Positions 4,244-57,479 of a stretch of DNA of 64,000 nucleotides are shown one piece after another (position 1 is the stretch's first letter; every line of letters begins with the position of its first letter). The position numbers and the translations under genes are program-made. The notes under the pieces are model-generated. The model had not been told where the DNA came from. It saw nothing but the letters and a program-made list of their open reading frames with translations, and ran no database searches. This DNA is from Candidatus Pacearchaeota archaeon (GTDB lineage Archaea; Nanobdellota; Nanobdellia; Pacearchaeales; GW2011-AR1). The stretch is taken from positions 76,720 through 140,719 of the forward strand of contig JBAZNI010000001.1 in NCBI GenBank assembly GCA_041649295.1. Direction: 5' to 3'.

Positions 4244-4705
4244 ATGGCAATATCAGCAAGAGAACCTTCTGCACATTACGAAGAACCATCTTTTTATCTA
4301 CATGAAGGGAAAACTATTGGAGATGTTGAGGGGACTTTAGAGGATTATTTTAGCAAATTCCATGGAGGTTTCACAAAAACTAGGGAAGGGTATTCATTTA
4401 GACTTCGTAAACATTGGTATAATTCCAAAGTTACCTTAACTGGAGAAGAAAGGGATACAGGGGGGCTTCCAAGAAAAGCAGTATTGGTAAAGTTGTCTCT
4501 CGATATAACTCCTAAAGGCAATTTGCGTGAAAAATCAGTCAGAAGAATACATAATAAAATTTCGAGAGAGTTACCATCATACTTAGCCAGATTAAAGATG
4601 CAAATAGATACTTCTGAATCTACACTTCCAGTGTCTGTTGGTTTTTTGTCTTGTCGTCCTAGTTATAGGAGGGTTCAATCGTTTTTATCTGAACTTTTTA
4701 CTTAA
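4244..4705 (+). CDS. Hypothetical protein (GC-richer than neighbours)
   Basis: 153-aa ORF with coherent composition; no family recognised. Confidence 0.4.
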   Translation: MAISAREPSAHYEEPSFYLHEGKTIGDVEGTLEDYFSKFHGGFTKTREGYSFRLRKHWYNSKVTLTGEERDTGGLPRKAVLVKLSLDITPKGNLREKSVRRIHNKISRELPSYLARLKMQIDTSESTLPVSVGFLSCRPSYRRVQSFLSELFT

Positions 4706-7244: not shown

Positions 7245-7361
7245 ATATTAACCTAACTAAATGACTATTTATTAAATCTATTGTTTTATAGATGTGCTGT
7301 TTGCTTAGAGGTATTTATAAATCACAACAAACCTTATTAATTCTCAAGCATTAAAAAAGTA

Positions 7362-8102
7362 ATGGAAATAAAAGAGGGAAGGATATTTACAGGAAGTTTT
7401 GATTTGGATAAATGGTTAAATGGGGGTTATGAAACCGATATAATAACAACCATTTATGGTCCAGCAGGAAGCGGAAAAACAAACTTCTGCATTTCTGCGG
7501 CAGTTTCTGCCTGCAAGGAAAAGAAAGTGATATTTATTGATACAGAAGGGGGTTTTTCTATTGAAAGATTTAAACAAATCGCAGGGGAGAGCTACAAATC
7601 TTTTTTATCAAATTTACTTATATTAAAACCAACTTCTTTTAGCGAGCAAAAAAAAGATTTCAGCCTTTTATTAAAAAATATAAATGAAGGGAATATTGGA
7701 TTAATAATTGTCGACGGAATGACTATGCTTTATCGTTTGGAGCTTGCAGATGCATGCAACAGTTCAGATGAATTTAGAATAAGATTAACTAATAAGGAGT
7801 TGGCAAAGCAGTTAAGGATATTGTCAGAGATTGCAAGGAAAAAAAATATCCCTATACTGATTACAAACCAGATTTATTATGATTTTCTTTCAAAAGAAGA
7901 TTTTCAAAATGGAAAAGAAAAAAAAGCAAATATGGTTGGGGGAGATTTGCTGAAATACTGGAGCAAGTGCCTGATCGAACTTCAGAATAATAACGGAAAA
8001 AGAAAAGCACTCTTAGTAAAGCACCGAAATATTCCTGAGGGGGAATTTGCTTTTTCAATCGGGAATTCAGGAATTAAAAGAAGAGGAATATTTGAGTTCT
8101 AA
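7362..8102 (+). CDS. radB: RecA-superfamily recombinase paralog RadB
   Basis: Walker A GPAGSGKTNFC, RecA-fold core, no N-terminal HhH domain, 246 aa. Confidence 0.75.
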   Translation: MEIKEGRIFTGSFDLDKWLNGGYETDIITTIYGPAGSGKTNFCISAAVSACKEKKVIFIDTEGGFSIERFKQIAGESYKSFLSNLLILKPTSFSEQKKDFSLLLKNINEGNIGLIIVDGMTMLYRLELADACNSSDEFRIRLTNKELAKQLRILSEIARKKNIPILITNQIYYDFLSKEDFQNGKEKKANMVGGDLLKYWSKCLIELQNNNGKRKALLVKHRNIPEGEFAFSIGNSGIKRRGIFEF

Positions 8103-14608: not shown

Positions 14609-14798
14609 GGATCCGTAGCTCAGTCTGGTCAGAGCACTGGACTCTTAAATGTAAGGACCTAGAGAACATACTTGTTCTCTGGTTCAGAGAATCTTTGATT
14701 CTCTTGAAACCCAGGTTCCTTAGCACTCAACCTCCTAAGATAATAACTTAAGGGCAAGAGAAATCCAGGTGTCGAGGGTTCAAATCCCTTCGGGTCCA
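14609..14798 (+). tRNA. tRNA-Lys(CUU) with a 115-nt intron at canonical position 37/38
   Basis: Hand-folded: acceptor GGATCCG/CGGGTCC, D-arm GCTC..GAGC, anticodon stem CTGGA/TCCAG with loop CTCTTAA, T-arm GAGGG-TTCAAAT-CCCTT, discriminator A. Intron 14648-14762 contains two perfect hairpins. Confidence 0.7.
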
Positions 14799-20302: not shown

Positions 20303-20374
20303 TGGGGCCCCCGTGAATCGAACACGGTACACCTACGTCTTCAGCGTAGTGCTCTCCCAATGAGCTAGGACCCC
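20303..20374 (-). tRNA. tRNA-Phe(GAA)
   Basis: Hand-folded cloverleaf: acceptor GGGGTCC/GGGCCCC, anticodon loop CTGAAGA, T-loop TTCGATT, discriminator A. Confidence 0.85.
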
Positions 20375-20465: not shown

Positions 20466-20750
20466 ATCAACGAGCGAGTTAGAGATAGGCCACATTCTGT
20501 TGTTTGTCCTTTAAGGAATCAAACATGCTAACATCTGACTATGCGGTTTTAAACCTTGCACCAACCAGGATGCTCGTTCCAGCCCAAAAGGGTATCGTTT
20601 CTATCTCATTGCCCTGCCTCACGACAGTATTCTTTCGAATATGGTTATAAGTGGTGTGCGGACCTTCCTCAGACACAGAGAATTCATTTTTAATTCTTGT
20701 TGATTTAACAACACTGCACCGAAGTTAGCTGTCTAACTCGCTCTGAAAAA
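20466..20750 (-). ncRNA. Candidate structured RNA (SRP 7S RNA or minimal RNase P RNA) closed by a 12-17 bp terminal helix
   Basis: GC-enriched about 285-nt island between tRNA-Phe and the next gene. Ends CGAGCGAGTTAGAgAtAG ... cTgTCTAACTCGCTC are inverted repeats. Minus-sense has GAGGAAGGUCCGCAC (CR-I-like), ACAGAAUGUGGCCUA (CR-V-like) and GGAACGAGCA (SRP helix-8-like). Identity and strand are uncertain. Confidence 0.3.
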
Positions 20751-20795
20751 TACCAGAATACAAATGTTTAAAAACCTTTTCTTTATTGAAAATCT

Positions 20796-21620
20796 ATGTT
20801 AGACGAAGTTTTAAACACAGCAGAGGACTTAGTAATAATCGGCAAGTCAGGAACAAAAGGCAAATATGTTTTTGCTTTTCCACTAAAAGGAGAAGTTGCA
20901 AAACACTATTTTTATAAAACTCTTGCAGATGGAGAAGAAAGAAACGTAGCTGGTTTTAAAGAGTACTGGCAATTTGATGATAAAACAGGATTAATAACTG
21001 GCTCAAGCACTTTTTTAGCTTTAAGACTTGATGAAGCAGTTAGAGCAGATGGTTTTTGGATACCAGATATAGAAGAAGCATTATTTTTAGATAAAGAAAG
21101 AAGATTAACAAATGGAGTTTACAGAGATTATGGATTAGCTGTTTTTAATGATAGAGAACCTAATCAAGAAGTGGCAAATGAAATTATTAGTAAATCTGGG
21201 AATAGAGAACTGCCATTAATTATCCCTTTTAAAGATGTGGCTCATAGACTAGATGGAAATTTCCCTTATGGTGTTGCAATTTCTTTAGTTGATAATCCTT
21301 CTGGATTAAAATCAGGAGAACAAGCGCAGAAAATTTTAAGCAGGTTTAATTATGTTGGAGATTCTGGGGCGTGCAGGGTTTATCGCTACAGGTACAGCGG
21401 TTGGTTTGCTGGCTTGGACGGGTTGGGCGGCTCTGGCTCCGGTGGTCGGGGGGATTTTTTGTGTGGCGAAGCCACACGCGCTGATTTGTTAAGTGCCCAT
21501 GATGGTTTACTTAAAAGAAGATATGATGCTAAACTTTTTGAATTAGCAAAAGAAGAAAAAAGATTGTTAGCACAGCAGGATAAAGAACAAATGTCTTTCT
21601 TAGAACAAATTGGCATGTAA
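20796..21620 (+). CDS. DGR target (variable) protein, cytoplasmic, unknown fold
   Basis: 274 aa, no signal peptide. C-terminal segment encoded by 21366-21450 (ACRVYRYRYSGWFAGLDGLGGSGSGGR) is the variable repeat. Confidence 0.6.
   Translation: MLDEVLNTAEDLVIIGKSGTKGKYVFAFPLKGEVAKHYFYKTLADGEERNVAGFKEYWQFDDKTGLITGSSTFLALRLDEAVRADGFWIPDIEEALFLDKERRLTNGVYRDYGLAVFNDREPNQEVANEIISKSGNRELPLIIPFKDVAHRLDGNFPYGVAISLVDNPSGLKSGEQAQKILSRFNYVGDSGACRVYRYRYSGWFAGLDGLGGSGSGGRGDFLCGEATRADLLSAHDGLLKRRYDAKLFELAKEEKRLLAQQDKEQMSFLEQIGM
21366..21450 (+). repeat. DGR variable repeat (VR)
   Basis: 85-bp match to 21840-21924 with about 18 mismatches, all at positions where the other copy has A; non-A positions 100% identical. 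Confidence 0.75.
21461..21477 (+). other. GC hairpin (GTGTGGC-GAA-GCCACAC) immediately 3-prime of VR
   Basis: Perfect 7-bp stem with GAA loop, 10 nt after the VR; resembles the hairpin found after IMH in DGR targets. Confidence 0.5.
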
Positions 21621-21839
21621 ATTATATAAACCAATGTTTCTTTTTAAGATTCCTAGCCATTAAATGGCTGGGCCACACGCCAATTAATTAGCACATCATT
21701 TAGATTTATTTTAAGTCATGAAATTCAACTACGACAATTAGTAGTTATGATATGAATGCGAAACTTGAAGTAGTGGTGCTCTGTCGTTAAGACACTAGGA
21801 GGCTCCTTTTTAGGAGAGATTAATTGGCTACAAAGTTGG

Positions 21840-21924
21840 AGGGCGTGCAGGGTTTATCGCAACAGGAACAGCGATTGGAATGCTAACTTGAACAAGTTAG
21901 GCGACTCTGACTCCAATGGTCAAA
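21840..21924 (+). repeat. DGR template repeat (TR), non-coding, adenine-rich
   Basis: Intergenic. In the VR reading frame it is rich in AAC/AAT/GAC codons (N R N S D W N A N L N K L G D S D S N G Q). Confidence 0.75.
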
Positions 21925-22014
21925 TGGCTCAAATATGGCTAGGATATTATTTCAGATAAAACAGACTAAAAGATTTTTAAAAATCTTTTTATATGGTGAT
22001 ATCTTTAATTTTTT

Positions 22015-24678
22015 ATGGATTATTACACCTTGAAAAAAGAAGATGTTTTGAAAGAATTAAAAACCGGCTTTAACGGGCTTTCAAACACAGAAGCAAAAAA
22101 AAGAATAGTTCAATATGGCTCTAATGTAATTTTAAAACAAAAAACAATAAACCCATTTTTTTTATTTATCCAGCAGTTTAACAGCGCTTTAATCTATATA
22201 TTAATAATTGCTGCAGTTATTTCTTATATTTTTGGGCATATCGTTGATGTTTATATTATTGCAATAGTTATTTTAATTAATTCTCTTATTGGATTTTTAC
22301 AAAGCTATAGGGCGGAAAAATCAATTGATGCATTAAGAAAATTAATTGTGAGTTATGCAAAAGTTTACAGAGACGGAAAATTAACTAAACTGAAAGCAGA
22401 AGAATTAATTCCTGGAGATGTAATACTTTTAGAGCAGGGAGATAAAGTCCCTGCTGACTGCAGATTGCTGGAGCTAAAAAATCTTCAGACTGTCGAATCT
22501 TCTTTAACAGGAGAGAGTTTTCCTATAGATAAAAAAGACATAGTCCTCTCTCAGAAAACCCCTATTTCAGATATGGTTAATATGGTTTTTATGGGAACAT
22601 TTATTTCTAATGGCAGCTGCAAAGCAGTTGTTGTTGCAACAGATAATGAGACAGTTATAGGAAAATTAGCAAAAGAACTTCAAAGTGTTCAACATCCAAA
22701 ATCCCACTTTTCAAAAAAAACAAATATCTTAGCAAAACAGATGGCAGCTATTGCAGTTATAGGGGCATTAATCACTTTTTTGATAGGTTATTTTATTAGA
22801 GGTTTTGAATTTGCAGAGATTTTATTATTTACTATTGCCTCGCTAGTTTCTAGCATTCCAGAAGGATTGCCTGCAGTTCTTGCAATTGTTCTTGCAATTG
22901 GCGCATTTAGAATGTCAAAGAGAAACGCACTAATAAGGAAACTTCCTGCAACAGAAACTTTAGGAGTTGTTACAACAATTATAACTGATAAAACCGGAAC
23001 AATAACTGAAAATGTAATGTCTGTTGAAAAGATAATTATGCCCGGATATCCAGAGATTTCTATAACTGGCACTGCATGGATTCCAAAAGGGGAATTTATT
23101 CAGATAGGCAAGAGAATAAATCCGTCAGATAATCTTCAGCTAACAAAACTTTTAGCTATTTCAAAAATCTGCAATAATTCAAGGTTGCTAAAAGAAAGTG
23201 ATAATTATAGTATAATCGGGGACCCTACAGAAGCAGCACTTTTAGTATTAGGTGAAAAATCAAAAATGTCCTTAGATGAGGAAAAGATTGATGATATACC
23301 ATTTAACTCTGAATTAAAATACCGCGCTTCTTTAGTTGCATTAGTTAAAGAGGATAATATAAAGCAGATATATGTTGTTGGAGCTCCTGAAGAAATTATT
23401 AATTACTCCTCTCATTTTTTAAATAAAAATGCAAAAAAAATTCTTTCAAAAAAAGATATTTCAGAGATAATGGGGGGAATAGATAAATTGACTAAAGGGG
23501 GGATGAGAGTTCTTGCACTTGCTTATAAAAATACTTCTGCAGACATTAAATCAATTTCAAAAGAAAATATTAATGGATTAACTATCGTGGGAATAGTTGG
23601 AATAATGGACCCTCCGCGCCCAGAAGTTAAAGAAGCAATTGAGAGAGCTAAAAAAGCAGGGATAAGAGTGATAATGGCAACAGGAGACCATAAAGGAACT
23701 GCATTATCTGTTTCAAAAGAAATAGGCTTAGTAGATAATAATTATACTCAGGTTTTCACAGAATCAGAATTGAAATCTCTTTCAGAAAAAGAATTTTCAA
23801 AGGTTGTCATGACATATAATATTTTCGCGCGCCTTACTCCAGACATGAAATTAAGAATCGCTTCAGAATTACAGGCTCAGGGAGAAACAATTGCTATGAC
23901 TGGGGATGGTGTTAATGATGCTCTTGCTATTAAACGCGCAGATATAGGTATTGCAATGGGAGTAATAGGAACAGATGTAGCTCGTGAAAGCGCAGAGCTC
24001 GTTTTAGTAGATGATAATTTTGCGTCAATAATAAATGCAATTGAAGAAGGCAGGATTGTTTTTACAAATACAAGACAGGCAAGTTTTTTTCTTATAACTA
24101 CAAATTTCGCTGAAAACGCTACAATAATTCTTTCATTACTTGTAGGTATGCCTCTTCCACTTTTACCTACTCAAATATTATGGTTAAATCTAGTAACTGA
24201 TACTGGTTCTGGAGTTTCTCTTGCAGTTGAGCCCTCTTATAAAGATGTTTTGCACGAGAAACCAAGAAACCCTAAAGAAAACATTCTCTCAAAAGAAATA
24301 ATTCCATTTTTAGCAATTATGGTCGCTACAATGGTTGCTCTTACATATTTTATATTTAATTATTTCCTTGCATTTAGTGTTGAATCAGCAAGAACAGCTG
24401 CTTTTTCAGTTATGGCATTTACCCAGCTTTTTAATTTATTTAATATGCGTTCTCTGAAGAAATCCATTTTTAAAATAGGGTTTTTATCAAATAAATATAG
24501 TATATTTGCATTTGTTTTATCTGTACTTGCTGTTTTAGCTGTAATTTATATCCCTTTAATTCAAAAAGCATTCAACTTTGTTCCAATTGCATTTACAAGC
24601 ATGATTTTAATATTTATCCTTTCTTCATTGGTTCTTGTTTTTGGAGAAATCTACAAATTTGCGAAGAAGAAATTTTAA
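22015..24678 (+). CDS. P-type cation-transporting ATPase (P2-type)
   Basis: DKTGTITEN phosphorylation site, TGDGVNDALAIKRADIGIAMG hinge, 10 TM topology, 887 aa. Confidence 0.9.
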   Translation: MDYYTLKKEDVLKELKTGFNGLSNTEAKKRIVQYGSNVILKQKTINPFFLFIQQFNSALIYILIIAAVISYIFGHIVDVYIIAIVILINSLIGFLQSYRAEKSIDALRKLIVSYAKVYRDGKLTKLKAEELIPGDVILLEQGDKVPADCRLLELKNLQTVESSLTGESFPIDKKDIVLSQKTPISDMVNMVFMGTFISNGSCKAVVVATDNETVIGKLAKELQSVQHPKSHFSKKTNILAKQMAAIAVIGALITFLIGYFIRGFEFAEILLFTIASLVSSIPEGLPAVLAIVLAIGAFRMSKRNALIRKLPATETLGVVTTIITDKTGTITENVMSVEKIIMPGYPEISITGTAWIPKGEFIQIGKRINPSDNLQLTKLLAISKICNNSRLLKESDNYSIIGDPTEAALLVLGEKSKMSLDEEKIDDIPFNSELKYRASLVALVKEDNIKQIYVVGAPEEIINYSSHFLNKNAKKILSKKDISEIMGGIDKLTKGGMRVLALAYKNTSADIKSISKENINGLTIVGIVGIMDPPRPEVKEAIERAKKAGIRVIMATGDHKGTALSVSKEIGLVDNNYTQVFTESELKSLSEKEFSKVVMTYNIFARLTPDMKLRIASELQAQGETIAMTGDGVNDALAIKRADIGIAMGVIGTDVARESAELVLVDDNFASIINAIEEGRIVFTNTRQASFFLITTNFAENATIILSLLVGMPLPLLPTQILWLNLVTDTGSGVSLAVEPSYKDVLHEKPRNPKENILSKEIIPFLAIMVATMVALTYFIFNYFLAFSVESARTAAFSVMAFTQLFNLFNMRSLKKSIFKIGFLSNKYSIFAFVLSVLAVLAVIYIPLIQKAFNFVPIAFTSMILIFILSSLVLVFGEIYKFAKKKF

Positions 24679-24914
24679 CTTGTTAGTATTTGTTTACGAT
24701 TGCCATCATTCAAAACAGCTTCTATTTTTAGTTCAGAAGCCACCTTTCTAGCAATATCCATAGCATCTAATAAATTAAATCTTGATTCATATTCTTCACC
24801 GGAAGCATTCTCTGCCATATTACATAGAGCTCTATCTTCAAGAATTAACCTTACATTATATTGTATCCCTGAAAAATGGCTAACTTCTACATAAGGGCCC
24901 TGTTTTTCTACCAT
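24675..24914 (-). CDS. Hypothetical small protein
   Basis: 79-aa ORF overlapping ATPase stop by 4 nt. Confidence 0.3.
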   Translation of the reverse strand: MVEKQGPYVEVSHFSGIQYNVRLILEDRALCNMAENASGEEYESRFNLLDAMDIARKVASELKIEAVLNDGNRKQILTS

Positions 24915-25320
24915 AATTTTCCATAAATTGTGTGTTATTAAATATTTCGCTTATTAATTTATTCATAAATTGATTTTTACTCCGCGAAAATTACATAGTA
25001 CTACCTTTTAGTTAAATAGTATATAAATAAAAGTATATATTAAAGTATATATTTTATCAGGGTTTTGCTTATAAAACTTGATTGTTTTTTAGTGTTAAGG
25101 AGGTAGTGATTATGAGAATAAAAGTTACTTTTGACAACAAAAGAGGCGCTAGCTTATTCCCAGAAAAACACTTTGGACTTATTCAGGACTTAATAGAAAA
25201 ATATCCTAATGCCCTTTGGAGAAAAATCAGCAACAAAAACGGACAACAGGGATACGAGTTAGAAGTGTAGTTTATTTCTTTTCCTTTTCCTTTTTATGTT
25301 TTTATTCCTCTTTTGCAGTT

Positions 25321-25773
25321 TTACCTTTTAGATGGTTCAATGAAAAACCCTTCTCTTGCAATAAATGCACGATTTGATTCAAATAAATTTATTACTTTGT
25401 CAGGAATAAAAGGCATGGCAACTTCCTCGCATAATTTTGCTAAGCCAAACCAGTGAGTTGACTCTAAAACAATAATATTATTTCCTGCTCCGGCATTAAC
25501 AACCCCAATTCTTTGACAGCAGTTGCCAGTGTCTAATTCATTAGCATAACAATTCTCTTTCCAAAATGCAGCATAAGCTCGATATAAACTTCTATACCCT
25601 CTTTGATTTACTTTAGTTCTTACATCTGAAACCCCCTTACATAATCTATCCTCATGTAACCCAACTAGAGAATAAGCTGGGAAAATACCTATATCCAAAA
25701 GTGCACCAGCTTTCTGGGAATCTTCAGGAAATTTGCAATAAACTAGTCTAAATCCTAAATTAGTATTTGTCAT
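25321..25773 (-). CDS. Hypothetical protein (GC-richer)
   Basis: 150 aa; own TATA element 25789-25812 upstream. Confidence 0.4.
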   Translation of the reverse strand: MTNTNLGFRLVYCKFPEDSQKAGALLDIGIFPAYSLVGLHEDRLCKGVSDVRTKVNQRGYRSLYRAYAAFWKENCYANELDTGNCCQRIGVVNAGAGNNIIVLESTHWFGLAKLCEEVAMPFIPDKVINLFESNRAFIAREGFFIEPSKR

Positions 25774-25840
25774 ATTTTTGCATATCCTTCGAGTTTTTAA
25801 ATTTTTATATAATCTAAAATGTTCTCCAAACCAACTTATC

Positions 25841-26167
25841 TTATTTGATATTTAACTCAATAGAATTTATTAAAAAATCTGAATCAAGAGAATCTTTAAG
25901 TATCTTTGAAACTCTTGTGATTGCACCAGTTTGAACACTATCGCGATTATCATTTTGGGCGACATCTATCTTATAATAGGCCCCGGGTTTTGCTTCTAAA
26001 ACAATTCCTCTCTTTAAGTCACCTACACAAATTTCGCTTTTGTCATTTAATCTATAAGCTTTTATTAACATTTTACTCAATGATAAGCTATAAACTCTTA
26101 TTTTTAAATTTTTATATAGTCTAAATCTGCTTTTTTGTGTTTTATCATCGAGCAGATACAGACTCAT
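25841..26167 (-). CDS. Hypothetical small protein (true start probably internal Met near 26071)
   Basis: The first 32 codons overlap a promoter-like element; the shorter 76-aa version fits the promoter spacing. Confidence 0.35.
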   Translation of the reverse strand: MSLYLLDDKTQKSRFRLYKNLKIRVYSLSLSKMLIKAYRLNDKSEICVGDLKRGIVLEAKPGAYYKIDVAQNDNRDSVQTGAITRVSKILKDSLDSDFLINSIELNIK

Positions 26168-26426
26168 TAATTTTTTGAACTAATCTACCTATTCTATCTT
26201 CTAATTGGGCATATGCTGATGCAATTAAAATTCCCGTTTTATCTCTTCTATTAGCTCCAATAAATCTACCATCTCTATCAGTAACATAAGGTTTTAAATT
26301 TTCAATATGTTGTTTTGCATTAAGAAGGTCCTGAATTAAACCTCCTAGACATAGATCAGATGAGGGAGTATAATCATAAAGATATTTTCTTGCTTCTTCC
26401 AATACCTTTCTTTTATGAAATAACAT
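26145..26426 (-). CDS. Hypothetical small protein
   Basis: 93-aa ORF. Confidence 0.35.
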   Translation of the reverse strand: MLFHKRKVLEEARKYLYDYTPSSDLCLGGLIQDLLNAKQHIENLKPYVTDRDGRFIGANRRDKTGILIASAYAQLEDRIGRLVQKINESVSAR

Positions 26427-26451
26427 AAAGAATTTAGCTTTAGGACCTTTT

Positions 26452-26467
26452 TAAAAATTTATATAAT
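26452..26467 (+). promoter_or_regulatory. Archaeal BRE/TATA box (AAATTTATATA) about 21 nt upstream of ATG at 26487; leaderless transcript likely
   Basis: The same AAATTTTTATATA(A/G)TCTAAA element recurs at 25789-25812 and 26101-26127 in front of the minus-strand small genes. Confidence 0.5.
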
Positions 26468-26486
26468 CTTATTATTAACTAGATTT

Positions 26487-27524
26487 ATGGTTCATAAACA
26501 AAAGATATTCATAAAGACATATGGCTGCCAGGCTAACATAAATGACTCAGAGATTATGGCAGCCTTATTTAGCAGAAAGTATCAGATTGCTGACAGCGAA
26601 AACAGCGCAGATATAATCTTTATTAATTCCTGCGCTGTCAAAAACAAAACACAGTCAAAAATACTAGATTATATTAAAAAACACAAAGACAAAAAAATAA
26701 TTGTTGGAGGGTGTTTAGTAAAAACATTGGATATTAAAAAACAATTTCCAAAAGTAAAAACAATTGATACAATAAATCTCCAAAGATTAGGAAAAGAGTT
26801 AATACGAAATAAGAAAAACATAGCAATTATCCAGATTTCTCAAGGATGCATGAATAACTGCACTTATTGTGCAACAAGATTAGCAAAAGGAAAACTAAAA
26901 TCTTATCCTATTAAAAAAATAAAACTTGAATTAAAAAAAGCAGTTGATGAAGAAATAAAAACAATTTACATTACTAGCCAAGATAACGGGTGTTATGGAA
27001 AAGACACAGAAACAAATTTAGTTGAATTATTAAGAGAATTGATAAAAGTAGAAAGAGACTATAAAATTAGAATAGGCATGTCTAACCCTCAATATGTTGT
27101 GAAATATTTAGATGAATTATTATCAGTTATGGAAAATAAAAAAATAATAAAATTCCTGCATATTCCTGTTCAGTCAGGAAGCAATAAAGTTTTAAAAGAT
27201 ATGAAAAGAGGGCATAGCTCAGAAGATTTTGTAATAATAGTAAATAAATTTAGGAAAAAATTTCCAAGGCAAAAATTCCCGGACTCAACAATAGCAACAG
27301 ATATTATTGTAGGATATCCAACTGAAACAGAAGATGATTTTCAAAAAACATTAAATTTAATAAAAAACACTAAACCTGAAGTATTAAATATCTCTGCATT
27401 TTCCAGCAGAGCAGGAACTCCTGCCTCAAGGTTAAAACAACTCTCAAGTGAAATAATAAAACAAAGAACTAAAAAGTTAAATGATATTTATAGGGAATAT
27501 AGAAAGGAGTTAAAGGGTAGTTAA
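26487..27524 (+). CDS. MiaB/MtaB-family tRNA methylthiotransferase (MTTase N-domain plus radical SAM, no TRAM domain)
   Basis: YGCQAN...NSC N-terminal cluster cysteines; GCMNNCTYC radical-SAM motif. Confidence 0.8.
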   Translation: MVHKQKIFIKTYGCQANINDSEIMAALFSRKYQIADSENSADIIFINSCAVKNKTQSKILDYIKKHKDKKIIVGGCLVKTLDIKKQFPKVKTIDTINLQRLGKELIRNKKNIAIIQISQGCMNNCTYCATRLAKGKLKSYPIKKIKLELKKAVDEEIKTIYITSQDNGCYGKDTETNLVELLRELIKVERDYKIRIGMSNPQYVVKYLDELLSVMENKKIIKFLHIPVQSGSNKVLKDMKRGHSSEDFVIIVNKFRKKFPRQKFPDSTIATDIIVGYPTETEDDFQKTLNLIKNTKPEVLNISAFSSRAGTPASRLKQLSSEIIKQRTKKLNDIYREYRKELKGS

Positions 27525-29195: not shown

Positions 29196-29490
29196 CTTAT
29201 AGATTTAAATTGTAGCTTTTAGTAACTGCAGACTGAACACGTCGCCGAAGCTTCGTGCTTACATCTCAGTTCTATCAACGTCCTCTTCTTGGACGGCCTA
29301 AATTGTCTCGTTTTGCGGATGGCTTCGTGCTTAGATGCTTTCAGCACTTATCCATACAATGCGTAGCTGCTCGGCATGCTCATAACAACCGATACACCAG
29401 AGGCATCCAAGTACCGTTCCTCTCGTACTAGATACTCGTTCCACTCAGACAATAACACACCTAGTAGATATCATACAAACTGTCTCACGT

Positions 29491-30254
29491 ATATTTTTCC
29501 ACTTTTTCAAGTTGGTATGGACTATACCTTCATCCTTACTTTTTGTAAGGAGATCGACGTCTTAGCCATCTTTTGCAAGATGACTCTTGAGCTAAACTCT
29601 CAGTCTCTACGGGGATAAAGATTTATTTACCACTTCATAAGTTAATTTTCTTTTCTTAGAATAGTTAAGTTCTTTGAACTTATCTACAAGCTTACAAATA
29701 TCTAGAAAATCTTCATCAGATTTTTTATTATCTAATTTATTTAAGATTTCTAAACCAAGTTTTACTTGTCTTTTCTTTAACTTTATATATGGTTGCAGAA
29801 GTATCAAAATTTTATGAACTTCTTTTGGTTCAACAATAGTATAATCGCTAATTCCTGTTTTACGATGACGAATACATCCATTCTCAAATATATTTTTAAG
29901 CCATTCTAAAATCTCTTTATATTCTGTTTTTTGATAAAATGCTACTGAGCTTCTTATCTGAAACTTTTGTTTATAATCTGGCCTTGAAACTATCTGAAAG
30001 AAAATGCTTCCATCTCCATCTAAGAATCCTGCGATATATGCAAGTGTTGTTTCATCTGCAAATCTCATCTTCCCTCGGTATTACCATGCTTTATCTGTTT
30101 TTAATCTTTTATTTTAATCCTAAAAGGACAAATAAGTTTAGGTTTCACCGATATGAGTCGATTTTATTTTTCATAACATTACTGCTATGCAACGCCGTGT
30201 TTTGTGTTAACTCCATATTTCTATATTCACATGGGTCTGCTGGTTTTGTGTTGA
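29491..30254 (-). other. 23S intron 1 (about 764 nt) in the AACGUC-GUGAGACAG region, E. coli about 2593; likely archaeal BHB-type
   Basis: Exon sequence GGGTTAAGAACGTC (30255 and up) resumes as GTGAGACAGTTTG at 29489 and down. Intron does not end in G and the 5-prime exon junction is ambiguous, arguing against group I. Confidence 0.7.
29607..30068 (-). CDS. LAGLIDADG homing endonuclease (intron 1 encoded)
   Basis: LAYIAGFLDGDGSIFFQ motif, 153 aa, fully inside the intron. Confidence 0.85.
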   Translation of the reverse strand: MRFADETTLAYIAGFLDGDGSIFFQIVSRPDYKQKFQIRSSVAFYQKTEYKEILEWLKNIFENGCIRHRKTGISDYTIVEPKEVHKILILLQPYIKLKKRQVKLGLEILNKLDNKKSDEDFLDICKLVDKFKELNYSKKRKLTYEVVNKSLSP

Positions 30255-30907
30255 CGTTCTTAACCCAGCTAACGATCCCTTTTAATATGTGAACTCCAGC
30301 ACCCTTGGTAGCTTATGCACTACCAGGTTAGGAAGAGCCGACAGCGATGTACCAAACCGCCCCGTCAATACGGACTATCGGGGGCGACAAGCCTGTTATC
30401 CTTGGGGTACCTTTTCTGTCACATTCGGAATCTATTAAGAATTCTCGAAGGTTCGCTAGAACCAGCTTTCGCTTCTGCATTTCTTGCTTTTCGAAATACA
30501 GTTAGATGAGCTTTTGCTCTTACACTCGACTCCAGATTTCCACCCTGGATGAGCTCATCTTTGTGCCCTGTAGATAGATTTTCTACAGGGTGCCGCCCCA
30601 GCCAAACTGCCCACAAGCTGCTGTTCTCTCAAGAGAGTAAGTGGTTCCTTAATTGGTAAGTAGTATTACACTGTTGCTCCACATCTACCGAAGTAAATGT
30701 CTCGACGCTCCTACCTATTCTATGTATCAATCAAAAAATCACAACAACATGCTGCAGTAAAGGTCCACAAGGTCTTAGCTTCCCACTAGGCATCACCGGC
30801 CTTTTCACCGGTTAATGATTTCAGAAGGTTCTGGTTAGGGACAGCGACCACCTCGTTAAACCATTCATGCAAGTCGCCATTCAGACGACAAGGTATTACG
30901 CTACCTT

Positions 30908-31742
30908 AAGCAAACTGTTACTTTTATAACCTTGAATTATTCAAGGCGGGTTTGCGCGAGCAAACCTCTATATGTCTCCATATAGATCGGACTATATCAT
31001 CACAAATTGCAATTTAGTTTTGTGTTTGGCGTATAGTCTCTGAGGATTCTAGAATTAAAATTATTTTGTTTTTTTAGTTTCATCTAAAAAACATTTTGAA
31101 AGCAATCTATCTAATGAATCATCAATTGCTATTTGTATGAATTCCTCTGGAGGAACTGCATAAAAATCCATCTTAGATTTACTCGATGTAAAAATAGGTA
31201 TTCCAGATTCAAACACTTTTGCTATTGGAATCCACAACCAAGTTTTATAATCAAATTCTTCATTTGATAAAACATACCAAATACTCAAACTAAATTTTCT
31301 TTGAATTGAAGAATAATTTTTTGTTTCTTCACTATCTATTGGATATGTTTTATATTCAGAACTTAATTTTTTGTATTTTACATCAACAAAAATAAATCCT
31401 AAATTTGGAATTAAAATTAAAAAATCAGGACGTTTTCCACTGAAATATTTTTTAAAAGCAAAAGATAATGTTTGAGTATCTTGTTGCAAATATAGATATG
31501 GTATATTATGTCTGTCTAGCCATTCTCTAAATTTTATTTCAGCTTCATTTCCTTTTTTCTTATTTTCTTCCTCTATCTGATTCATTTTAGATTAAGGTTG
31601 GCTTTACTTATAATTTTTTCTATTCTAGTCTTTCCTGCGGATTGTCCTTATCTTTTAAATTTTTACTATTGATAAACAATTAGTACCAAAAGCTTAACAG
31701 GATTTTCCCGCATACAGCCAAATTTAAACGCCCCCTAAATTG
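30908..31742 (-). other. 23S intron 2 (about 835 nt) between GUAACUAUGACCCU and AAGGUAGCG (domain IV, E. coli about 1923-1931)
   Basis: Exon landmarks are contiguous in E. coli but separated here by about 835 nt containing an ORF. Confidence 0.65.
31061..31585 (-). CDS. PD-(D/E)xK-fold nuclease, putative intron-encoded homing endonuclease (intron 2)
   Basis: RPDFLILIPN...FIFVDVKYKK gives the D...(D/E)xK motif arrangement; 174 aa, fully within the intron. Confidence 0.55.
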   Translation of the reverse strand: MNQIEEENKKKGNEAEIKFREWLDRHNIPYLYLQQDTQTLSFAFKKYFSGKRPDFLILIPNLGFIFVDVKYKKLSSEYKTYPIDSEETKNYSSIQRKFSLSIWYVLSNEEFDYKTWLWIPIAKVFESGIPIFTSSKSKMDFYAVPPEEFIQIAIDDSLDRLLSKCFLDETKKTK

Positions 31743-33666
31743 AGGGTCATAGTTACCCCCGCCGTTTGATGGGCATTAGCCCCCTTGAAAAGAGGTTTCA
31801 GACACCACCACTGGACAGGTCTCACCGATTATACAAGTCCTTTCGGATTAGCAATCGGCTACGTTTTTGATAAACAGTCGGGCAGTCCTTGTTACTTAGA
31901 TCTACATATGCCTTCTAATATCAAAGACAAATATAGACACCCTTTATACCGAAGATACAGGGCCAATGTGCCGAATTCCCTTAACCAGTTTATCCCTTAC
32001 AGGTCTTAGCCTTCTCAGCTAGGGCACCAGTGCTAGATCTAGGTACAGCTATGCACTTTCTATTTATAGAACTTTTCACTGGCTCCGGGAATCAGGGGTT
32101 TTAGTTAAGATATTCATTTGCATCTTAGCATTATGCTCAACAAATTTCTATCTTAAATTCGCTTTCGCGACTCCACTTATCCAGAAGCAATTCCATAACA
32201 TAACAAAAGCACAAAGTTCAGGAATATTAACCTGATTTCCATCGAAGTGCTCAATTAAGACACTCCTTAGGTACTGACTAACCCTTGGCTAACGTATATT
32301 GCCAAGGAAACCGTGCCCTTACGACCTTTTCCATTCTCAGGAAAATTTGATCCTACTCCAGCCAGGATTTTCATTGCTTTTTGTTCCACACACTCTTTCG
32401 AGAATGCTTCTGCACAAAAAGCACGCCAGTTTACCAGAACACTCATCTGAGTGCCTCTATGGTATCGGTAGTATGCTTAGCCCCGTCCATTTTCAGGGCC
32501 AAAAACCTCGATAGGTGAGCTGTTACGCTTTCTTTAAAGGGTGGCTGCTTCTGTGCCTACCTCCCCACTGTCTCAGGTTTAAGACACCTTTTGATACACT
32601 TAGCATACATTAGGGACCTTAACCATAGTCTCCCTTGTTCGGGTCTCGGAACAGGACCTTACGCCCTGCCCCCGTTTCTTATTTTAAGCAGTATACAAAT
32701 TCTGAGTTGGAAAGAGTTCCGTAGCATAATGCTCTGCAAACTCAATCCGTACTTTACCTCGTATACAAACAAAATAAGGCTATACTAAGGCATATTTCAA
32801 CTGGAACCAGCCATCGCCAGATTAGATAGGCTTTTCACCCCTAATCACAAGTCATCCAAGTACATGCACATAACACCGGTTCAGGCCTCCATCCTTATTT
32901 CTAAGAACTTCGCCTTGCTCATGATTAGATCATCTGGCTTCGGGTCAATCCTCTGTGACTAAACGCCCTTTCAGACTCGCTTTCGCTTTGGCTACCAAAT
33001 GTTAACCTCGCCACAAAAAATAACTCCCTGGCCCATTTTTCGAAACGTACGTTACAACACCTTAATGCCGTAACAAACCGTGACTGTTAGATTTCAAGTC
33101 TTTTAACTCTCTGCCAAGAGTACTTTTCAGCTTTCCCTCGCGGTACTAGTACGCTATCGGACTTAAGTTAATATTTAGGGTTCGGAATTAATCTTCCGGT
33201 ATTCAGACCTCCAATTCGGGAAGCCCTACTCTTTTAAGAAACACCATATATTTTTATCTACGGGACTATCACCCTGTATTGTGCAACTTTCCAGAAACTT
33301 CAATAAAAATACTTAGGCATTGATTCTCACCACATCTCTATCTCTCTTTCGAAAGAAGATTCAGTTTGCCCTCTACCCTTTTCACTCGCTGTTACTAAGG
33401 GTATCGCTTTTGCTTTCTTTTCCTGCAGGTACTAAGATGTTTCAATTCCCTGCGTATGCCTGCTTCTCAGCATTCTCCGAAGAGAATGTAGAATCACATT
33501 AGGAGATCCCAAGATCAAAGTTCGCATGCAACTCCCTTGGGCTTTTCGCAGCTTGCCACGTCCTTCATCGCAACTTAAGCCAAGCTATCTGTCTAACAGC
33601 CTGTAAAATCAAATCTAAAGATATCATTAATAGATTTCTCTATCAAGATACCTATGGGAAACCATG

Positions 33667-52096: not shown

Positions 52097-53338
52097 GTAA
52101 GTTAAATACTTATCGGCTATTTTTTTATACTATTTAATAAAAGTGTATTCCATCTATTCCCCTTAACTTCTATTCCACATCTTTCAGCAGGAGTAAGTTT
52201 ATCCTTTTCAGCTTTCTTTATAAAATTATGGAATACCTTAAATCCGTCTGCATAAGTTTGAGTTTCTGTAACTCCTCTTCTAACTTTTAACATTTCTTTT
52301 TGATGAGTGTGCAAGTTTTCTATTGCATTATTATTTGTTTCGTGTCTATGTCCTTTAATTGATGTAAATTTAATTTTCCTTTCTCTTCCAAAATTTCTAA
52401 ATGTATTCCTGCAACCATCTTCATAACCTTTGTAGCCATCTACAATAATCTGATTAGGCATTTTACCATTCTGTTTATATGCTTCTGTAAAAACCTTTTG
52501 TGCGTCTTTACTCTTTCTACTTCTACCAGAATTAACAGAAGCAAGTAAAAACTTAGTTTGATTATCCATACAATTCCAAACATAATCAAATTCAGAATTT
52601 TGTATTTTAGTCTTTCCTCTTTTAGTTAATACAAGTGTTTCATCAGCGTTCCAAACCCCAGAAGTTTTAGGAGTTAGAGTTTTAGAGTATTTTTCCATAA
52701 CTTCTGTAAATCTTAAAACCCATCTTCTTATTGTTTCGTGGTGTAATTTTAATCCATAAAATTGGTTAAATGTATCTGTAATATCTCTGTAAGATAAGCC
52801 CTTGTAATAACAATCCATAGCAAGACAAACTAATTTAGCATTTCCTTTAATGTATTTAATTGGTTCTAAAACAAATCTTTTTTTACAATCCTTACAGCCA
52901 AATCTTTGCTTATCTCCTGTTTTATCGTGCCTTACCCCTCTCTTGATTAGTTTTGTAGATTTGCAGTAAGGACAGCACTTTTCAGTTGAATTTTCTAAAA
53001 TTAACTCCATCTCTTGTTTTAGAGGTGTTTCTTCTATTTCATAAGCGTTCTTTAACTTTTCAAATAAAAGTATAGCTTTGATATGTTTGCAGTATAAACC
53101 TTTCCCCTTACATCTTAATTCAAAATCTTTGCAGTTACAAGAATAACTATCAAAATGCGTAACTTCATATTTTTTACTGCTATCAAATTGAGATGGAACT
53201 AAGTAAGTATTTTCATCTAAACATTCTGGTTTAGAATGTTCTAAGATTTGTTTTGCTCTTTGCTCTCTATTGTCTGCAAATTGTTTAATATCTTGTGTTG
53301 TTTCCATAGTATTATATAATACTTGTAGTATTTAAACA
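52097..53338. mobile_element. IS6-family insertion sequence (about 1.24 kb) with weak TIRs GTT(T)AAATACT
   Basis: Single DDE transposase ORF; imperfect inverted repeats at 52097-52110 and 53323-53338. Confidence 0.5.
52117..53307 (-). CDS. IS6-family DDE transposase with N-terminal SWIM and zinc-ribbon fingers
   Basis: CNCKDF..C...CKH SWIM; CPYCKS...CKDCKK ribbon; WNADETLV...YVWNCMD...QIIVDGYKGY (D, D, E block typical of IS6). Confidence 0.7.
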   Translation of the reverse strand: METTQDIKQFADNREQRAKQILEHSKPECLDENTYLVPSQFDSSKKYEVTHFDSYSCNCKDFELRCKGKGLYCKHIKAILLFEKLKNAYEIEETPLKQEMELILENSTEKCCPYCKSTKLIKRGVRHDKTGDKQRFGCKDCKKRFVLEPIKYIKGNAKLVCLAMDCYYKGLSYRDITDTFNQFYGLKLHHETIRRWVLRFTEVMEKYSKTLTPKTSGVWNADETLVLTKRGKTKIQNSEFDYVWNCMDNQTKFLLASVNSGRSRKSKDAQKVFTEAYKQNGKMPNQIIVDGYKGYEDGCRNTFRNFGRERKIKFTSIKGHRHETNNNAIENLHTHQKEMLKVRRGVTETQTYADGFKVFHNFIKKAEKDKLTPAERCGIEVKGNRWNTLLLNSIKK

Positions 53339-53406
53339 TTATGGTAATTAGGTAGTATATACTACTTTATACAAATGTTTATAAAGCAATAATACTATAA
53401 TTCTAT

Positions 53407-53577
53407 ATGGAAAAAAAGACTACATCTATTAAAATTAATCCTGAATTATGGCAAGATGTTAAGATACATTGTATTAAGGAAAAAACTGATATTTCTGATT
53501 GGTTAGAGAAGATTATTAAAGAAAATTTGAAAAATAATAAAGATAATAAGAGTAAATCTTATACAAAAATGTTTTGA
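53407..53577 (+). CDS. Ribbon-helix-helix (CopG-like) small protein
   Basis: 56 aa; TSIKINPELWQDVKIHCIKEKTDISDWLEKIIKE strand-helix-helix pattern; below the ORF-track cutoff. Confidence 0.4.
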   Translation: MEKKTTSIKINPELWQDVKIHCIKEKTDISDWLEKIIKENLKNNKDNKSKSYTKMF

Positions 53578-53654
53578 TTACCATTTTTAGATTAATATTA
53601 TATTATATAATATAAAACAAAAGATTTAAATAATATGATTTATATGTTTTATTT

Positions 53655-53915
53655 ATGACAGAGATTATGGATTTAAAAAAATTGAAAAAGAAAAAGAAAA
53701 CCGCAATAAGCATAACTATTAATTCTGAAAATTTAGATTTTTTAAAAGAAGATATGAAGAGAGAAGGTGTTGCGGATATGCCACTATCTTTAGTATTTGA
53801 TAATCTACTTGCAGACTTTGTTAATTATAGAAAATTGCAATTTAAAATAGAAGAGCAAAAAAACCTTAAGGGGAAATCAGGTGAAGATGAACATACAAAT
53901 AAAAAAGAGCAATAA
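53655..53915 (+). CDS. Ribbon-helix-helix (CopG-like) protein
   Basis: TAISITINSENLDFLKEDMKREGVADMPLSLVFDNLLADF. Confidence 0.4.
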   Translation: MTEIMDLKKLKKKKKTAISITINSENLDFLKEDMKREGVADMPLSLVFDNLLADFVNYRKLQFKIEEQKNLKGKSGEDEHTNKKEQ

Positions 53916-53980
53916 AATAATCAGCATTTCTAAAAATAGAAATTATTTAGTTGGAACTTAATAATTAGAATGCTGACAAT

Positions 53981-54068
53981 GAGGGCGTAGCTTAGCCAGT
54001 TAGAGCATTCGGCTGTTATCTGCAGGATAGACACCGAAATGTCGTGGGTTAAAATCCCACCGCCCTCA
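53981..54068 (+). tRNA. tRNA-Asn(GUU) with a 14-nt intron at 37/38
   Basis: Acceptor GAGGGCG/CGCCCTC, anticodon stem TTCGG/CCGAA, loop CTGTTA-[TCTGCAGGATAGAC]-A, T-arm GTGGG-TTAAAAT-CCCAC. Confidence 0.75.
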
Positions 54069-54239
54069 TTATCACTCACCATCGCGATGGATTGGTGAAT
54101 ATAAGTAGTTAGACTTAATAGAAATATTATTTAAACCTTTTGATTTTAGAGAATTATTACAGCCATTAAAGTAACCCAATAGTTTTTTCATTTCAACCTC
54201 TTATTACTATTAATATTATGATAACAATACTTATAAATG

Positions 54240-54419
54240 TTACTTTTTGTTTCCATTTTGTTTTTTAATTCTTATTGCCTCTTTTATTTTTGGTAGATTA
54301 ATACACGCTTTTATCATTTTTTTGAGTGCAATCTTTTTGTTCTTTTCATCTTCAAGAAACATAAATGCGGATAGTATTTCATTTTCTTCGTCGTCGAGTT
54401 CTATTTGTATATGTTTCAT
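54240..54419 (-). CDS. Ribbon-helix-helix-like small protein
   Basis: MKHIQIELDDEENEILSAFMFLEDEKNKKIALKKMIKAC; 59 aa; antisense ORF 54247..54429 is spurious. Confidence 0.35.
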   Translation of the reverse strand: MKHIQIELDDEENEILSAFMFLEDEKNKKIALKKMIKACINLPKIKEAIRIKKQNGNKK

Positions 54420-54544
54420 AAGGAGATAACTCTTTCTCCTTTTAAATATCTATCGGATATTATTATATCTATTAGATATAATTGCTATAAATACTTTTCG
54501 GTTTTAAAACACAAAGATTAAAACTACCAATAATCTATATTTTT

Positions 54545-54889
54545 ATGGGAATTTTCAAAAAGTTAGAGGATTTTTTTACATTACCCAATACTTATGAAGA
54601 ATTACAACAAACAGGAAAGATAGTTACACAGAAAGTAAGTAGGGCTTTATTAATTCACGATTTAGCTTGGAATTATTTGATTTTTAATCATAAAAATAAG
54701 TTCTCTTATTATCCCAATTCATATAGTGTAAATGAATATAATAATGAAATTATATTCAATGGAGAGTTTAATATTAAGTCAAAAAAAGAAGATATATATG
54801 TAAAACTTGAAATTAATGGAGAGAAAAAAGACTTTAAAATTATTCTTATTAAAGAACCAAGAAGTAAAGAAGCTCAAAAATTAAACTAA
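54545..54889 (+). CDS. Hypothetical protein
   Basis: 114-aa ORF. Confidence 0.3.
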   Translation: MGIFKKLEDFFTLPNTYEELQQTGKIVTQKVSRALLIHDLAWNYLIFNHKNKFSYYPNSYSVNEYNNEIIFNGEFNIKSKKEDIYVKLEINGEKKDFKIILIKEPRSKEAQKLN

Positions 54890-54896
54890 GTCCCTA

Positions 54897-55409: not shown

Positions 55410-55430
55410 GTTCTTTATTAAATTTAAGCT

Positions 55431-55691: not shown

Positions 55692-55909
55692 AATATCTTC
55701 AATAAAATAGGATAATTAAATGTTTTGATGTAATTATTATTCATATTCTCTTTTTTTATTTATAAATAATTAAGATAAACAAAAGTAGCTACTAGACTAC
55801 CAAATACATCAATAAAATATTGTCTCCAACATTAACAACCTTTCCTTATTACATTAACCCTGCCTTTTTATATCGAAATGTTTAAATCGCTTTACTATTT
55901 TAATAACAG

Positions 55910-56597: not shown

Positions 56598-56617
56598 GAC
56601 TTTATCATACAAAGAAC

Positions 56618-57403: not shown

Positions 57404-57406
57404 TAA

Positions 57407-57459: not shown

Positions 57460-57479
57460 ATCTCTTTTTTAATAGAACT

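Follow-up and report, generated by a model that had tools for sequence, protein, structure and literature searches.

An RT-16 RNA and template repeat without an adjacent reverse transcriptase: a diversity-generating retroelement cassette in a Pacearchaeota genome

A variable region (VR) and a template repeat (TR) that differ only at adenines, with no reverse transcriptase (RT) gene beside them, raise the question of whether the locus is a diversity-generating retroelement (DGR) and, if so, whether it is a remnant or is served by an RT encoded elsewhere. Such a pair was described in an earlier note on a 64,000-nt stretch from a Candidatus Pacearchaeota archaeon (GenBank assembly GCA_041649295.1, contig JBAZNI010000001.1, positions 76,720 to 140,719), which is called the window below; coordinates are those of the window; the cassette parts lie on its + strand, and (-) marks features of the other strand. 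The target gene, WC533_00625 (20796-21620), is an intact open reading frame (ORF) of 274 aa, carried on a 565-kb contig of this metagenome-assembled genome (MAG). Judged by comparison with related loci, the locus is certainly a DGR cassette of an Avd-less, DPANN-specific family; its donor RNA unit was complete, no RT gene was found in the window, and the cassette may have been orphaned recently.

When VR1 (21367-21450, codons 191-219 of the target gene) and the TR (21841-21924, 25 adenines) were compared base by base over 84 nt, 18 mismatches were counted. All of them (18/18) fell on an A of the intergenic copy, with 14 changes from A to G and four from A to T, while the two copies were identical at 59/59 non-A positions. 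The earlier count of about 18 differences over 85 bp, all at A and all to T or G, was therefore reproduced (18 in 84 nt, or 19, again all at A, in the 85-nt frame starting at 21366), and careful alignment brought up none of the non-adenine mismatches that had been named as evidence against a DGR. The extra A/G pair (21366/21840) probably lies outside the homologous segment; the 5' limit of VR/TR homology was placed at 21365/21839, and the first non-A mismatch on the 3' side was T21925 versus G21451. A repeat search returned the same pair as the largest direct repeat of the region, framed as 81 nt (21367-21447 versus 21841-21921) with 15 mismatches and 81% identity. The hypergeometric probability that 18 of 18 mismatches would fall on 25 A among 84 positions was 5e-13, and a chance site matching all non-A positions was expected 2e-36 times in the 64-kb window. 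Nearly all TR adenines (23/25) occupied codon position 1 or 2 of the VR frame, in AAC, AAT, GAC and GAT codons, in agreement with the AAC/AAT/GAC-type template noted before.

A GC-rich hairpin (GTGTGGC-GAA-GCCACAC, 21461-21477; 7-bp stem, GAA loop) was located 10 nt past the end of VR/TR homology, where the earlier note had placed a perfect GC hairpin. Between VR1 and the hairpin, VR and TR diverge in a boundary resembling an initiation of mutagenic homing (IMH) site (21448-21460). The hairpin was kept after most of nine family VRs examined; a tenth, in L007 (L numbers designate the loci compared), was without a perfect hairpin, and L001 carried the compensatory variant GTGTTGC-GAA-GCAACAC. 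By analogy, 21461-21477 is the likely counterpart of the DGR target-recognition hairpin/cruciform, which was defined by experiment in BPP-1 (Guo et al. 2011, PMC3240598).

Scanning of genomes and metagenomes for the target family and look-ups starting from RTs yielded 14 intact related cassettes from Pacearchaeota, Woesearchaeota and other Nanoarchaeota, each consisting of one or more targets, a TATA box, an RT-16 RNA, a TR, a short 3' element and an RT. VR/TR mismatches were adenine-only or nearly so in all of them. The cassette of L001, from another Pacearchaeota genome with a target homolog 56% identical to that of the window, was complete, with two tandem targets each bearing a VR, then RT-16, a TR 4 nt on, a spacer of ~40 nt and an RVT_1 RT. 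The earlier claim of a DGR VR/TR pair was strengthened by these 14 cassettes with RT and by a second VR that matches the TR (described below). No ORF was found between target and TR/RT in the window or its relatives, where RT-16 lies instead, and no hidden Markov model (HMM) search specific to Avd was run. A viral source of the RT-16 cassettes or of this TR was considered and rejected: 12 motif matches were all chance, and there were 0 TR matches in viral contigs.

The target protein had been described as cytoplasmic and of unrecognised fold. Sequence searches gave no assignment: Pfam returned 0 families for the window target and no relevant family among the 44 members of its family (44 clusters at 90% identity, DPANN archaea only), and a PDB sequence search with the family gave no match at E<=10. 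The AlphaFold model built on a 44-sequence alignment had a predicted local distance difference test score (pLDDT) of 95.4 and a predicted template modelling score (pTM) of 0.89 (an input of eight sequences gave pLDDT 44 and was set aside). This confident model matched C-type-lectin folds, among them those solved for the DGR variable proteins TaqVP and TvpA, and the description of the fold as unrecognised had to be given up; a Foldseek search of the model against PDB returned nothing significant. In the model, the VR (residues 191-219) spans the last strands and loops of the lectin-fold domain, a predicted position at the C-terminal end of a C-type-lectin-fold target that is characteristic of DGRs. 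Downstream of the VR are a conserved CGEAT motif, the codons of which make up the DNA hairpin, and a 45-residue C-terminal helix (residues 228-271); the structure of the C-terminal part, which the earlier note had wished to see determined, was thus predicted as a lectin-fold VR followed by a long helix. A crude hydropathy check detected no hydrophobic or transmembrane segment and no signal peptide in the target, and the cytoplasmic location agrees with this check. Compared with the solved C-type-lectin folds of TaqVP (5vf4), TvpA (2y3c) and Mtd, the window target is a predicted divergent form; its family differs from them in the CGEAT motif and C-terminal helix after the VR and in its restriction to DPANN archaea. 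Compared with families of the FGE-sulfatase/DUF1566 type, it had neither sequence similarity nor a Pfam match.

The TR had been called an intergenic copy. The repeat is indeed there, but the space between gene and TR is not empty: it holds an RT-16 RNA (Rfam RF03019, 21652-21836), which ends 4 nt before the TR and forms the structured 5' part of the predicted DGR RNA, together with a putative promoter of its own. The RT-16 match was full-length (model positions 1-158) and scored 106.4 bits against a gathering score of 50, among the three best of the cassette set. The placement of RT-16 relative to the TR was identical in the 14 intact cassettes. An RT gene lay beside RT-16 in these 14 cassettes, and in neither the window nor the copy designated L003a. 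A TATA-like box, AATTATATAAA (21620-21630), overlaps the target stop codon ~22-32 nt upstream of the 5' end of RT-16. Motifs of this type started at -30 to -28 in almost all 16 cassette copies, with the consensus AATTATAAAAA. A TATA box ~30 nt upstream is the spacing expected of an archaeal promoter, and AATTATATAAA is the putative promoter of the DGR RNA, with a start near the first RT-16 nucleotide. From 21652 to 21943 the RNA unit is complete at ~290 nt, comprising RT-16, the 84-nt TR and the 3' element. As we read this arrangement, the DGR RNA of this Avd-less archaeal family has RT-16 as its 5' scaffold and continues directly into the TR. In the work that described RT-1 to RT-19 (Weinberg et al. 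2017, PMC5737381), the motifs were noted to lie close to RT genes, and a DGR connection was made for RT-10 only; a literature search found no later paper on RT-16. That work gave RT-16 no function, whereas here it is shown as the 5' part of a DGR RNA, with an extra closing helix and, in the window, without an RT gene.

This extra helix is formed by a 5' arm, CCTAGCCAT (21652-21660), which is the first nine nucleotides of RT-16, and a complementary 3' arm, ATGGCTAGG (21935-21943), located ~10-15 nt past the TR-3' motif. The two arms form a perfect 9-bp duplex of -15.7 kcal/mol. A bracketing duplex of 8-10 bp was possible in 13/15 cassettes at -12 to -17 kcal/mol, compared with about -5 kcal/mol for shuffled arms, and own partners paired better than permuted ones at p=2e-5 (nine distinct arm sequences). 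Compensatory arm pairs were observed in L022 (CCCTGCCAT/ATGGCAGGG), L003 (CCTCGAC/GTCGAGG) and L042 (CCTGGTCTT/AAGATCAGG). The helix is absent from the Rfam RT-16 model and competes with the local P1 hairpin of that model. It and the P2 helix, which closes immediately ahead of the TR, are predicted to hold the template in a closed loop. Cis-primed reverse transcription of the Bordetella phage DGR RNA depends on a duplex, the 'cPRT Stop', in which sequence on one side of the TR pairs with sequence on the other; duplexes of this sort were predicted for 207 DGRs with Avd (Handa et al. preprint, bioRxiv 10.1101/2023.10.23.563531). The bracketing helix resembles the avd:Sp 'cPRT Stop' and may have a similar priming or termination role; its upstream strand is separated from the TR by ~185 nt instead of adjoining it.

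Around the 3' end of the TR, one position of the RNA unit deviates from the family. The TR-3' motif, GGTCAAATGGCTCAA (21918-21932; most common family form GGTCGAATGGCTCAG), carries A21922; the base at this position is G in the other 14 cassettes (GGTC-G-AATGG). In both VRs the G opposite A21922, the second base of the invariant Arg218 codon, is kept. A21922 could be a defect, that is, an inactivating or a recent mutation of the template. Past the 3' arm, an AT-rich perfect palindrome (AAAAGATTTTT/AAAAATCTTTT) followed by an oligo-T run (21968-21995) could serve the RT-less DGR RNA as an archaeal terminator. A scan around the RNA with bacterial-type promoter and terminator models, which are bacterial whereas the host is archaeal, detected no terminator. 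A 16-mer downstream of the 3' arm, AAAACAGACTAAAAGA (21958-21973), had an exact match at L006 418-433 and L024 301-316, an intergenic site of a Woesearchaeota locus that lies ~660 nt before a family target and is preceded there by GGTCGGATGGCTGA, which resembles the TR-3' motif; the match may be due to chance.

A paralog of the target, WC533_04805, is 88% identical and lies on a 207-kb contig of the same MAG (locus L009). No RT-16, TR or RT was found in the 19.6 kb around it. Its variable region (VR2, L009 10572-10655) differed from the window TR at 19 positions, 18 of which were TR adenines, and was identical at 58/59 non-A positions; the TR is thus the donor for VR1 and for the remote VR2, and this match means that it acted on a non-adjacent target. 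Over the 571 nt before the VR the paralogous genes were 97% identical, with a synonymous divergence (dS) of 0.042 and a ratio of nonsynonymous to synonymous divergence (dN/dS) of 0.65. Homology between the two loci was confined to 20755-21558 of the window, starting ~40 nt before the start codon. Twelve differences separated VR1 from VR2 at the 25 TR-A sites, where 0.74 was expected from background (P=2e-12), and one difference was found at the 59 non-A sites. The differences at TR-A sites imply at least one round of homing from this TR, or from an identical ancestor, after the duplication. Hairpins were intact after both VRs. Within 5 nt at 21153-21157, the window reads AGAGA and L009 reads GGGGG (Arg-Glu versus Gly-Gly); these A/G changes are 3/17 of the paralog differences outside the VR, and alleles of the GGGGG type also occur at the end of a contig (L066) of the European Nucleotide Archive (ENA), through allele mixing or gene conversion between the paralogs.

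These comparisons bear on whether a DGR need be invoked at all. An ordinary duplication with chance differences at A, or another A-specific process such as deamination, might account for the dominance of A to G changes (14/18 in VR1). However, A to T and A to C changes occur too, the adenine restriction has P~5e-13, a second VR and 14 intact cassettes with adjacent RT show the same pattern, and an RT-associated RNA of Rfam abuts the TR. The comparative data refute such explanations, to which we attach next to no probability.

If the locus is a DGR cassette, its RT has to be accounted for. In the 14 intact relatives the RT starts ~10-65 nt from the 3' arm; at this place the window has a P-type cation ATPase gene (22015-24678, + strand; Pfam E1-E2_ATPase etc.), which is not part of the element and which the earlier note had correctly named as the next gene. 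Homology to the complete cassettes ends just past the 3' arm, ~10 nt before the start codon of the relatives' RT, and an alignment aimed at a remnant of the RT 5' end in 21943-22014 scored at shuffle level. Four tests for an RT were negative: Pfam on the genes neighbouring the cassette, a YxDD motif scan of the six frames of the 64-kb window, tblastn of the window with the family RT, and a 120-sequence HMM run against stop-to-stop ORFs of at least 30 aa in the window. The last of these, a search for DGR-type RTs that the earlier note had proposed and that covered the window and the paralog locus, gave a best window score of 8.5 bits, with a positive control at E=7e-182. RT was thus absent over at least 21 kb on one side of the TR and 42 kb on the other, and the earlier observation of no RT ORF nearby stood, except that a trace of one was recognised in a deletion scar at 58292-58403 (see below). 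None of the best 120 of more than 7,500 RT-family matches lay on contigs of this genome, and the RTs P0065, P0108 and P0032 on long NCBI/JGI contigs, considered as candidates for the RT of this MAG, were rejected since they belong to other MAGs or samples. The window and the paralog locus, the sequence read for an RT, amount to ~84 kb, and the genome measures at least ~0.79 Mb.

The absence might also have been created by the assembler, through a mis-join at the VR/TR repeats or at the paralogous gene. Two further, independent assemblies of this organism exist, ENA ERZ27247363 (contigs of 480,217 and 107,470 bp) and Logan SRR8542065. The ENA contigs break in the target gene with a 141-nt overlap, and one of them carries nine paralog-specific alleles at 21153-21245, so the assemblers were confused by the duplicated gene body and not by the TR-to-ATPase junction. 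That confusion was limited to sequence upstream of 21246. From the VR to the ATPase (21246-26500, covering VR, hairpin, RT-16, TR and ATPase) and around the scar (52480-63000), both assemblies were identical to the window, making three contiguous assemblies by different software, and the TR-to-ATPase junction does not lie within a repeat. A mis-join is thereby largely refuted and is considered very unlikely. The ENA and Logan assemblies probably represent the same reads reassembled and then say nothing on VR heterogeneity. A related proposal is that only the consensus is RT-deleted, and that a minority of cells keep the RT, behind the TR or in a second cassette, and go on diversifying. Mixtures of this kind were seen by long reads in DGR loci 3 and 7 of Thiohalocapsa (PMC10907252), and the breaks and mixed alleles in the paralogous target gene show that the short-read assemblies are consensus-driven. 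However, the three assemblies have identical RT-less junctions with no alternative contigs recovered, and the metagenome scan gave no contig of the same organism bearing both target family and RT, so we hold a population mixture to be improbable.

The trace of an RT lies in a second DGR locus, ~36 kb downstream of the first cassette. An intact target gene of a second cassette type (57480-58307, 275 aa) matched L003 5628-6461 by blastp at E=7e-39, a gene of a different family that was verified as a DGR target and has a VR, TR and RT of its own. No A-tolerant match that could serve as its TR partner was found in the window or among the TRs of relatives. Directly following this gene, the scar (58292-58403) comprises a TATA box, a P1 hairpin (CCTC-GATTAAA-GAGG) and a CCACATGC linker (58292-58348), and then a fragment of an RT 3' end (58368-58403). 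The first part was collinear with the start of the intact RNA of L003 (L003 7216-7290), with TATA box, T-rich tract, P1 CCTC...GAGG and linker CCACAYGC in the same order. The decamer GGCCACAYGC occurred only twice in the window, at 21671 and 58339, where 0.04 was expected. The second part encodes SFQGWKAYVT*, like the 3' ends of RT genes, and the RT of L003 reads SFQGWQAYVKWS at the matching position. Nucleotide identity of the fragment was 23/25 to L001, L022 and L042/L043 (one sequence), 21/23 to L040 and 28/37 to L003. The best window matches of tblastn and of the RT HMM both fell in intergenic sequence at 58308-58495 and were non-significant (HMM 8.5 bits versus 6.9 for the best shuffle). 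At 58150-58650, Rfam did not match RT-16 even at E<=10; for this reason the interpretation as a scar is based on three things, its collinearity with L003, the rarity of the motif and the RT 3' fragment. On these grounds its 5' part is well supported as a cassette remnant and its 3' part, the RT fragment, moderately supported. The simplest reading is that ~1.25 kb was deleted from the second cassette, taking with it the RT-16 core, the TR and RT codons ~1-300.

Some further observations concern this locus and its relatives. The RT 3' segment AGTTTTCAAGGNTGGAANGCTTATG showed ~92% nucleotide conservation among L001 12872-12896, L022 2161-2185, L042 6952-6976 and L040 1595-1617 (compare window 58370-58394), in RTs that share only ~63-74% protein identity with the L001 RT, a possible sign that the sequence also acts in cis. 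Just upstream of the second target, an ORF of 261 aa (56618-57403) without a Pfam match has a C-terminal ...GYAFGV motif. No homology linked it to either target family, although its position would suit a tandem second target of the dead cassette. Membership of the ORFs 56618-57403 and 57480-58307 in the first target family was rejected, as hhalign found no homology. A DDE transposase gene (52117-53307, (-); IS240/IS66-type domains and a SWIM finger) lies ~4 kb upstream of the second locus and is a possible agent of rearrangements. A gene for RNase J (beta-CASP) lies next to the DGR locus here (58496-59833) and also in the unrelated cassette L044-L046 (L044 53-1396), with proteins 55% identical; the neighbourhood could be conserved or a coincidence.

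L003 holds both cassette types side by side with a single RT, and its copy of the first family has lost TR and RT. In that copy (L003 4251-5329), an RT-16 follows two targets of the window family and is followed by a nucleotidyltransferase gene rather than by TR and RT; its two VRs have no TR within 13 kb. The RT-16 copies of L003, 3 kb apart, were 98% identical over a 126-nt stretch (4314-4439 versus 7326-7451).

How the first cassette reached its present state can be proposed in conventional DGR terms. An RT would have bound the structured RT-16 RNA, cDNA synthesis would have been primed at the 3' end of the TR, and the enzyme would have misincorporated opposite TR adenines. The resulting cDNA would have replaced the VR beside the GC hairpin. 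Copies of the TR mutated only at adenines have taken the place of the C-terminal variable region of the lectin-fold protein encoded 474 nt upstream, and of that of the paralog. The RT in cis would then have been lost, leaving the cassette as a frozen donor-target pair. We therefore regard the cassette as recently orphaned, in a genome that is shedding its DGR enzymes, and give this account about an even chance of being right. It is the most likely one because both cassettes of the window have lost their RT, the sole RT trace is a scar, A21922 replaces an invariant G, and the sister copy in L003 is more decayed; it holds unless an RT exists in the ~90% of the genome outside the search.

Several findings weigh against orphaning. 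Promoter, RT-16, helix, all 25 adenines and both VR hairpins are intact, and the rearrangement stopped ~10 nt short of the RNA unit, as would be expected had selection for continued use preserved it. The search for an RT covered only the ~84 kb given above, so an RT acting in trans is possible. DPANN genomes can carry several DGRs. The RT fragment of the scar is a short match (25-37 nt). The counts of non-A mismatches to the TR (VR1 0/59, P=0.17 under no homing since the duplication; VR2 1/59, P=0.48) fit ongoing homing as well as recent loss, and an attempt to date the last homing by them was abandoned for lack of power.

In the main rival reading the cassette is alive, that is, a transcribed stand-alone donor (promoter, RT-16, TR and 3' element) used in trans by a distant RT, more than 36-42 kb away or on another contig, to diversify both paralogs. 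The RNA unit is complete with its boundaries precisely kept, both VRs are of the adenine type and were diversified after the duplication, and action on a remote target was already shown in this genome by VR2. Supplied in trans, avd, TR and brt work experimentally in Bordetella (Wu et al. 2018, PMC5758913), diversification of incomplete loci in trans was proposed in Thiohalocapsa (PMC10907252), and the two RT-16 copies of L003 share one RT locus. However, no RT was found in any of the sequence read or among the best RT homologs, its single trace is a deletion scar, the G to A change at an invariant position of the TR-3' motif is unique to this TR, and the short distance from 3' arm to RT in 14/14 intact relatives suggests that the cis arrangement is the norm. 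Use in trans is a serious alternative on this evidence, and recent orphaning remains the reading we prefer.

Other features of the window agree with an archaeal origin: it contains archaeal 16S and 23S rRNA, an archaeal RNase P RNA and intron-containing tRNAs at ~31% G+C. The DGR target gene is directly preceded by the RNase P RNA (20474-20741, (-)) and a tRNA-Phe (20303-20374, (-)). The 23S rRNA gene (29302-33616, (-)) is interrupted, with a main Rfam match at 30200-33616 (3,417 nt for a 2,987-nt model) and a 3' fragment at 29302-29453; the gap of ~750 nt holds a LAGLIDADG homing-endonuclease ORF (29607-30068, (-)), indicating an rRNA intron, and the main match is longer than the model, which points to further insertions. 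A tRNA match of 190 nt (14609-14798) was not called by ARAGORN and presumably contains a long intron, and the tRNA-Asn (53980-54069, 90 nt) also has an intron.

The prototype DGR, that of Bordetella phage BPP-1 (mtd-avd-TR-brt), shares with the window an adenine-specific TR/VR pair at the 3' end of a C-type-lectin-fold gene, an IMH-like boundary at the end of the VR/TR homology with a GC-rich hairpin behind it (PMC3240598), and a template in a structured RNA with paired segments flanking the TR ('cPRT Stop', bioRxiv 10.1101/2023.10.23.563531). The structured RNA of BPP-1 lies downstream of the TR (Sp), whereas in the window RT-16 (~185 nt) lies upstream and the helix uses the extreme 5' end of the RNA. 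The window also differs in having no RT in cis, an archaeal-type promoter and no Avd gene that was seen, with no search specific to Avd made, and its target is apparently cytoplasmic and cellular rather than a phage tail fibre. About 29% of DGRs have no accessory protein (Avd, HRDC etc.). Accessory genes are likewise missing from the TR-RT core of 'Architecture A' DGRs and of the CPR (Candidate Phyla Radiation) and DPANN set (PMC5758913; Paul et al. 2017 as cited there), as they are from all intact relatives of this cassette. With the CPR-DPANN set the family shares DPANN hosts, one or two tandem targets and non-adjacent targets; the last were found for 45/372 DGRs in one survey (Wu et al. 2018, PMC5758913). 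These catalogues are RT-centred, with the TR beside the RT, whereas the TR and RNA of the window stand alone. The closest parallel for incompleteness is Thiohalocapsa PB-PSB1 (Dore et al. 2024, PMC10907252), where incomplete loci have VRs matching a remote TR at non-A sites, loci are duplicated and rearranged near transposases, and the same choice between trans activity and decay arises. Its host is a multicellular bacterium, its DGRs are of the Avd type, and diversification was seen in reads, whereas the window is known from assemblies alone; moreover, Thiohalocapsa retained only targets, whereas the window retained the donor (TR and RNA).

DGRs in DPANN archaea, remote targets, architectures without accessory genes and incomplete loci were already known, and the mechanism is conventional. 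What is new here is a stand-alone donor without RT, the assignment of RT-16 with its helix and promoter, the lectin-fold family and the paired snapshots of decay. The RT-16 assignment gives an orphan Rfam family a function and an extended structure, and extends to archaea the principle, seen by cryo-electron microscopy in a phage DGR, that the RNA surrounds the template. The targets form a new, DPANN-only family of C-type-lectin-fold DGR proteins without secretion signals, which bears on how targeted hypermutation is used. One major survey pipeline requires a repeat within 1 kb of an RT (PMC8144416); no RT lies within that distance of the window TR, and RT-anchored catalogues of this kind cannot see a template and RNA scaffold that stand without an RT. 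The locus itself offers a search recipe, namely an RNA of the RT-16 type followed by an A-rich repeat. Two stages of decay, one with the RT alone gone and one with RNA core, TR and RT gone, are found in a single reduced genome of the symbiont type, a natural experiment on what becomes of hypervariable proteins once diversification stops. If, instead, the cassette is used in trans, a DGR donor can consist of a modular gene for RNA alone, and surveys anchored on RTs would systematically miss donors and undercount the targets of hypermutation in DPANN archaea.

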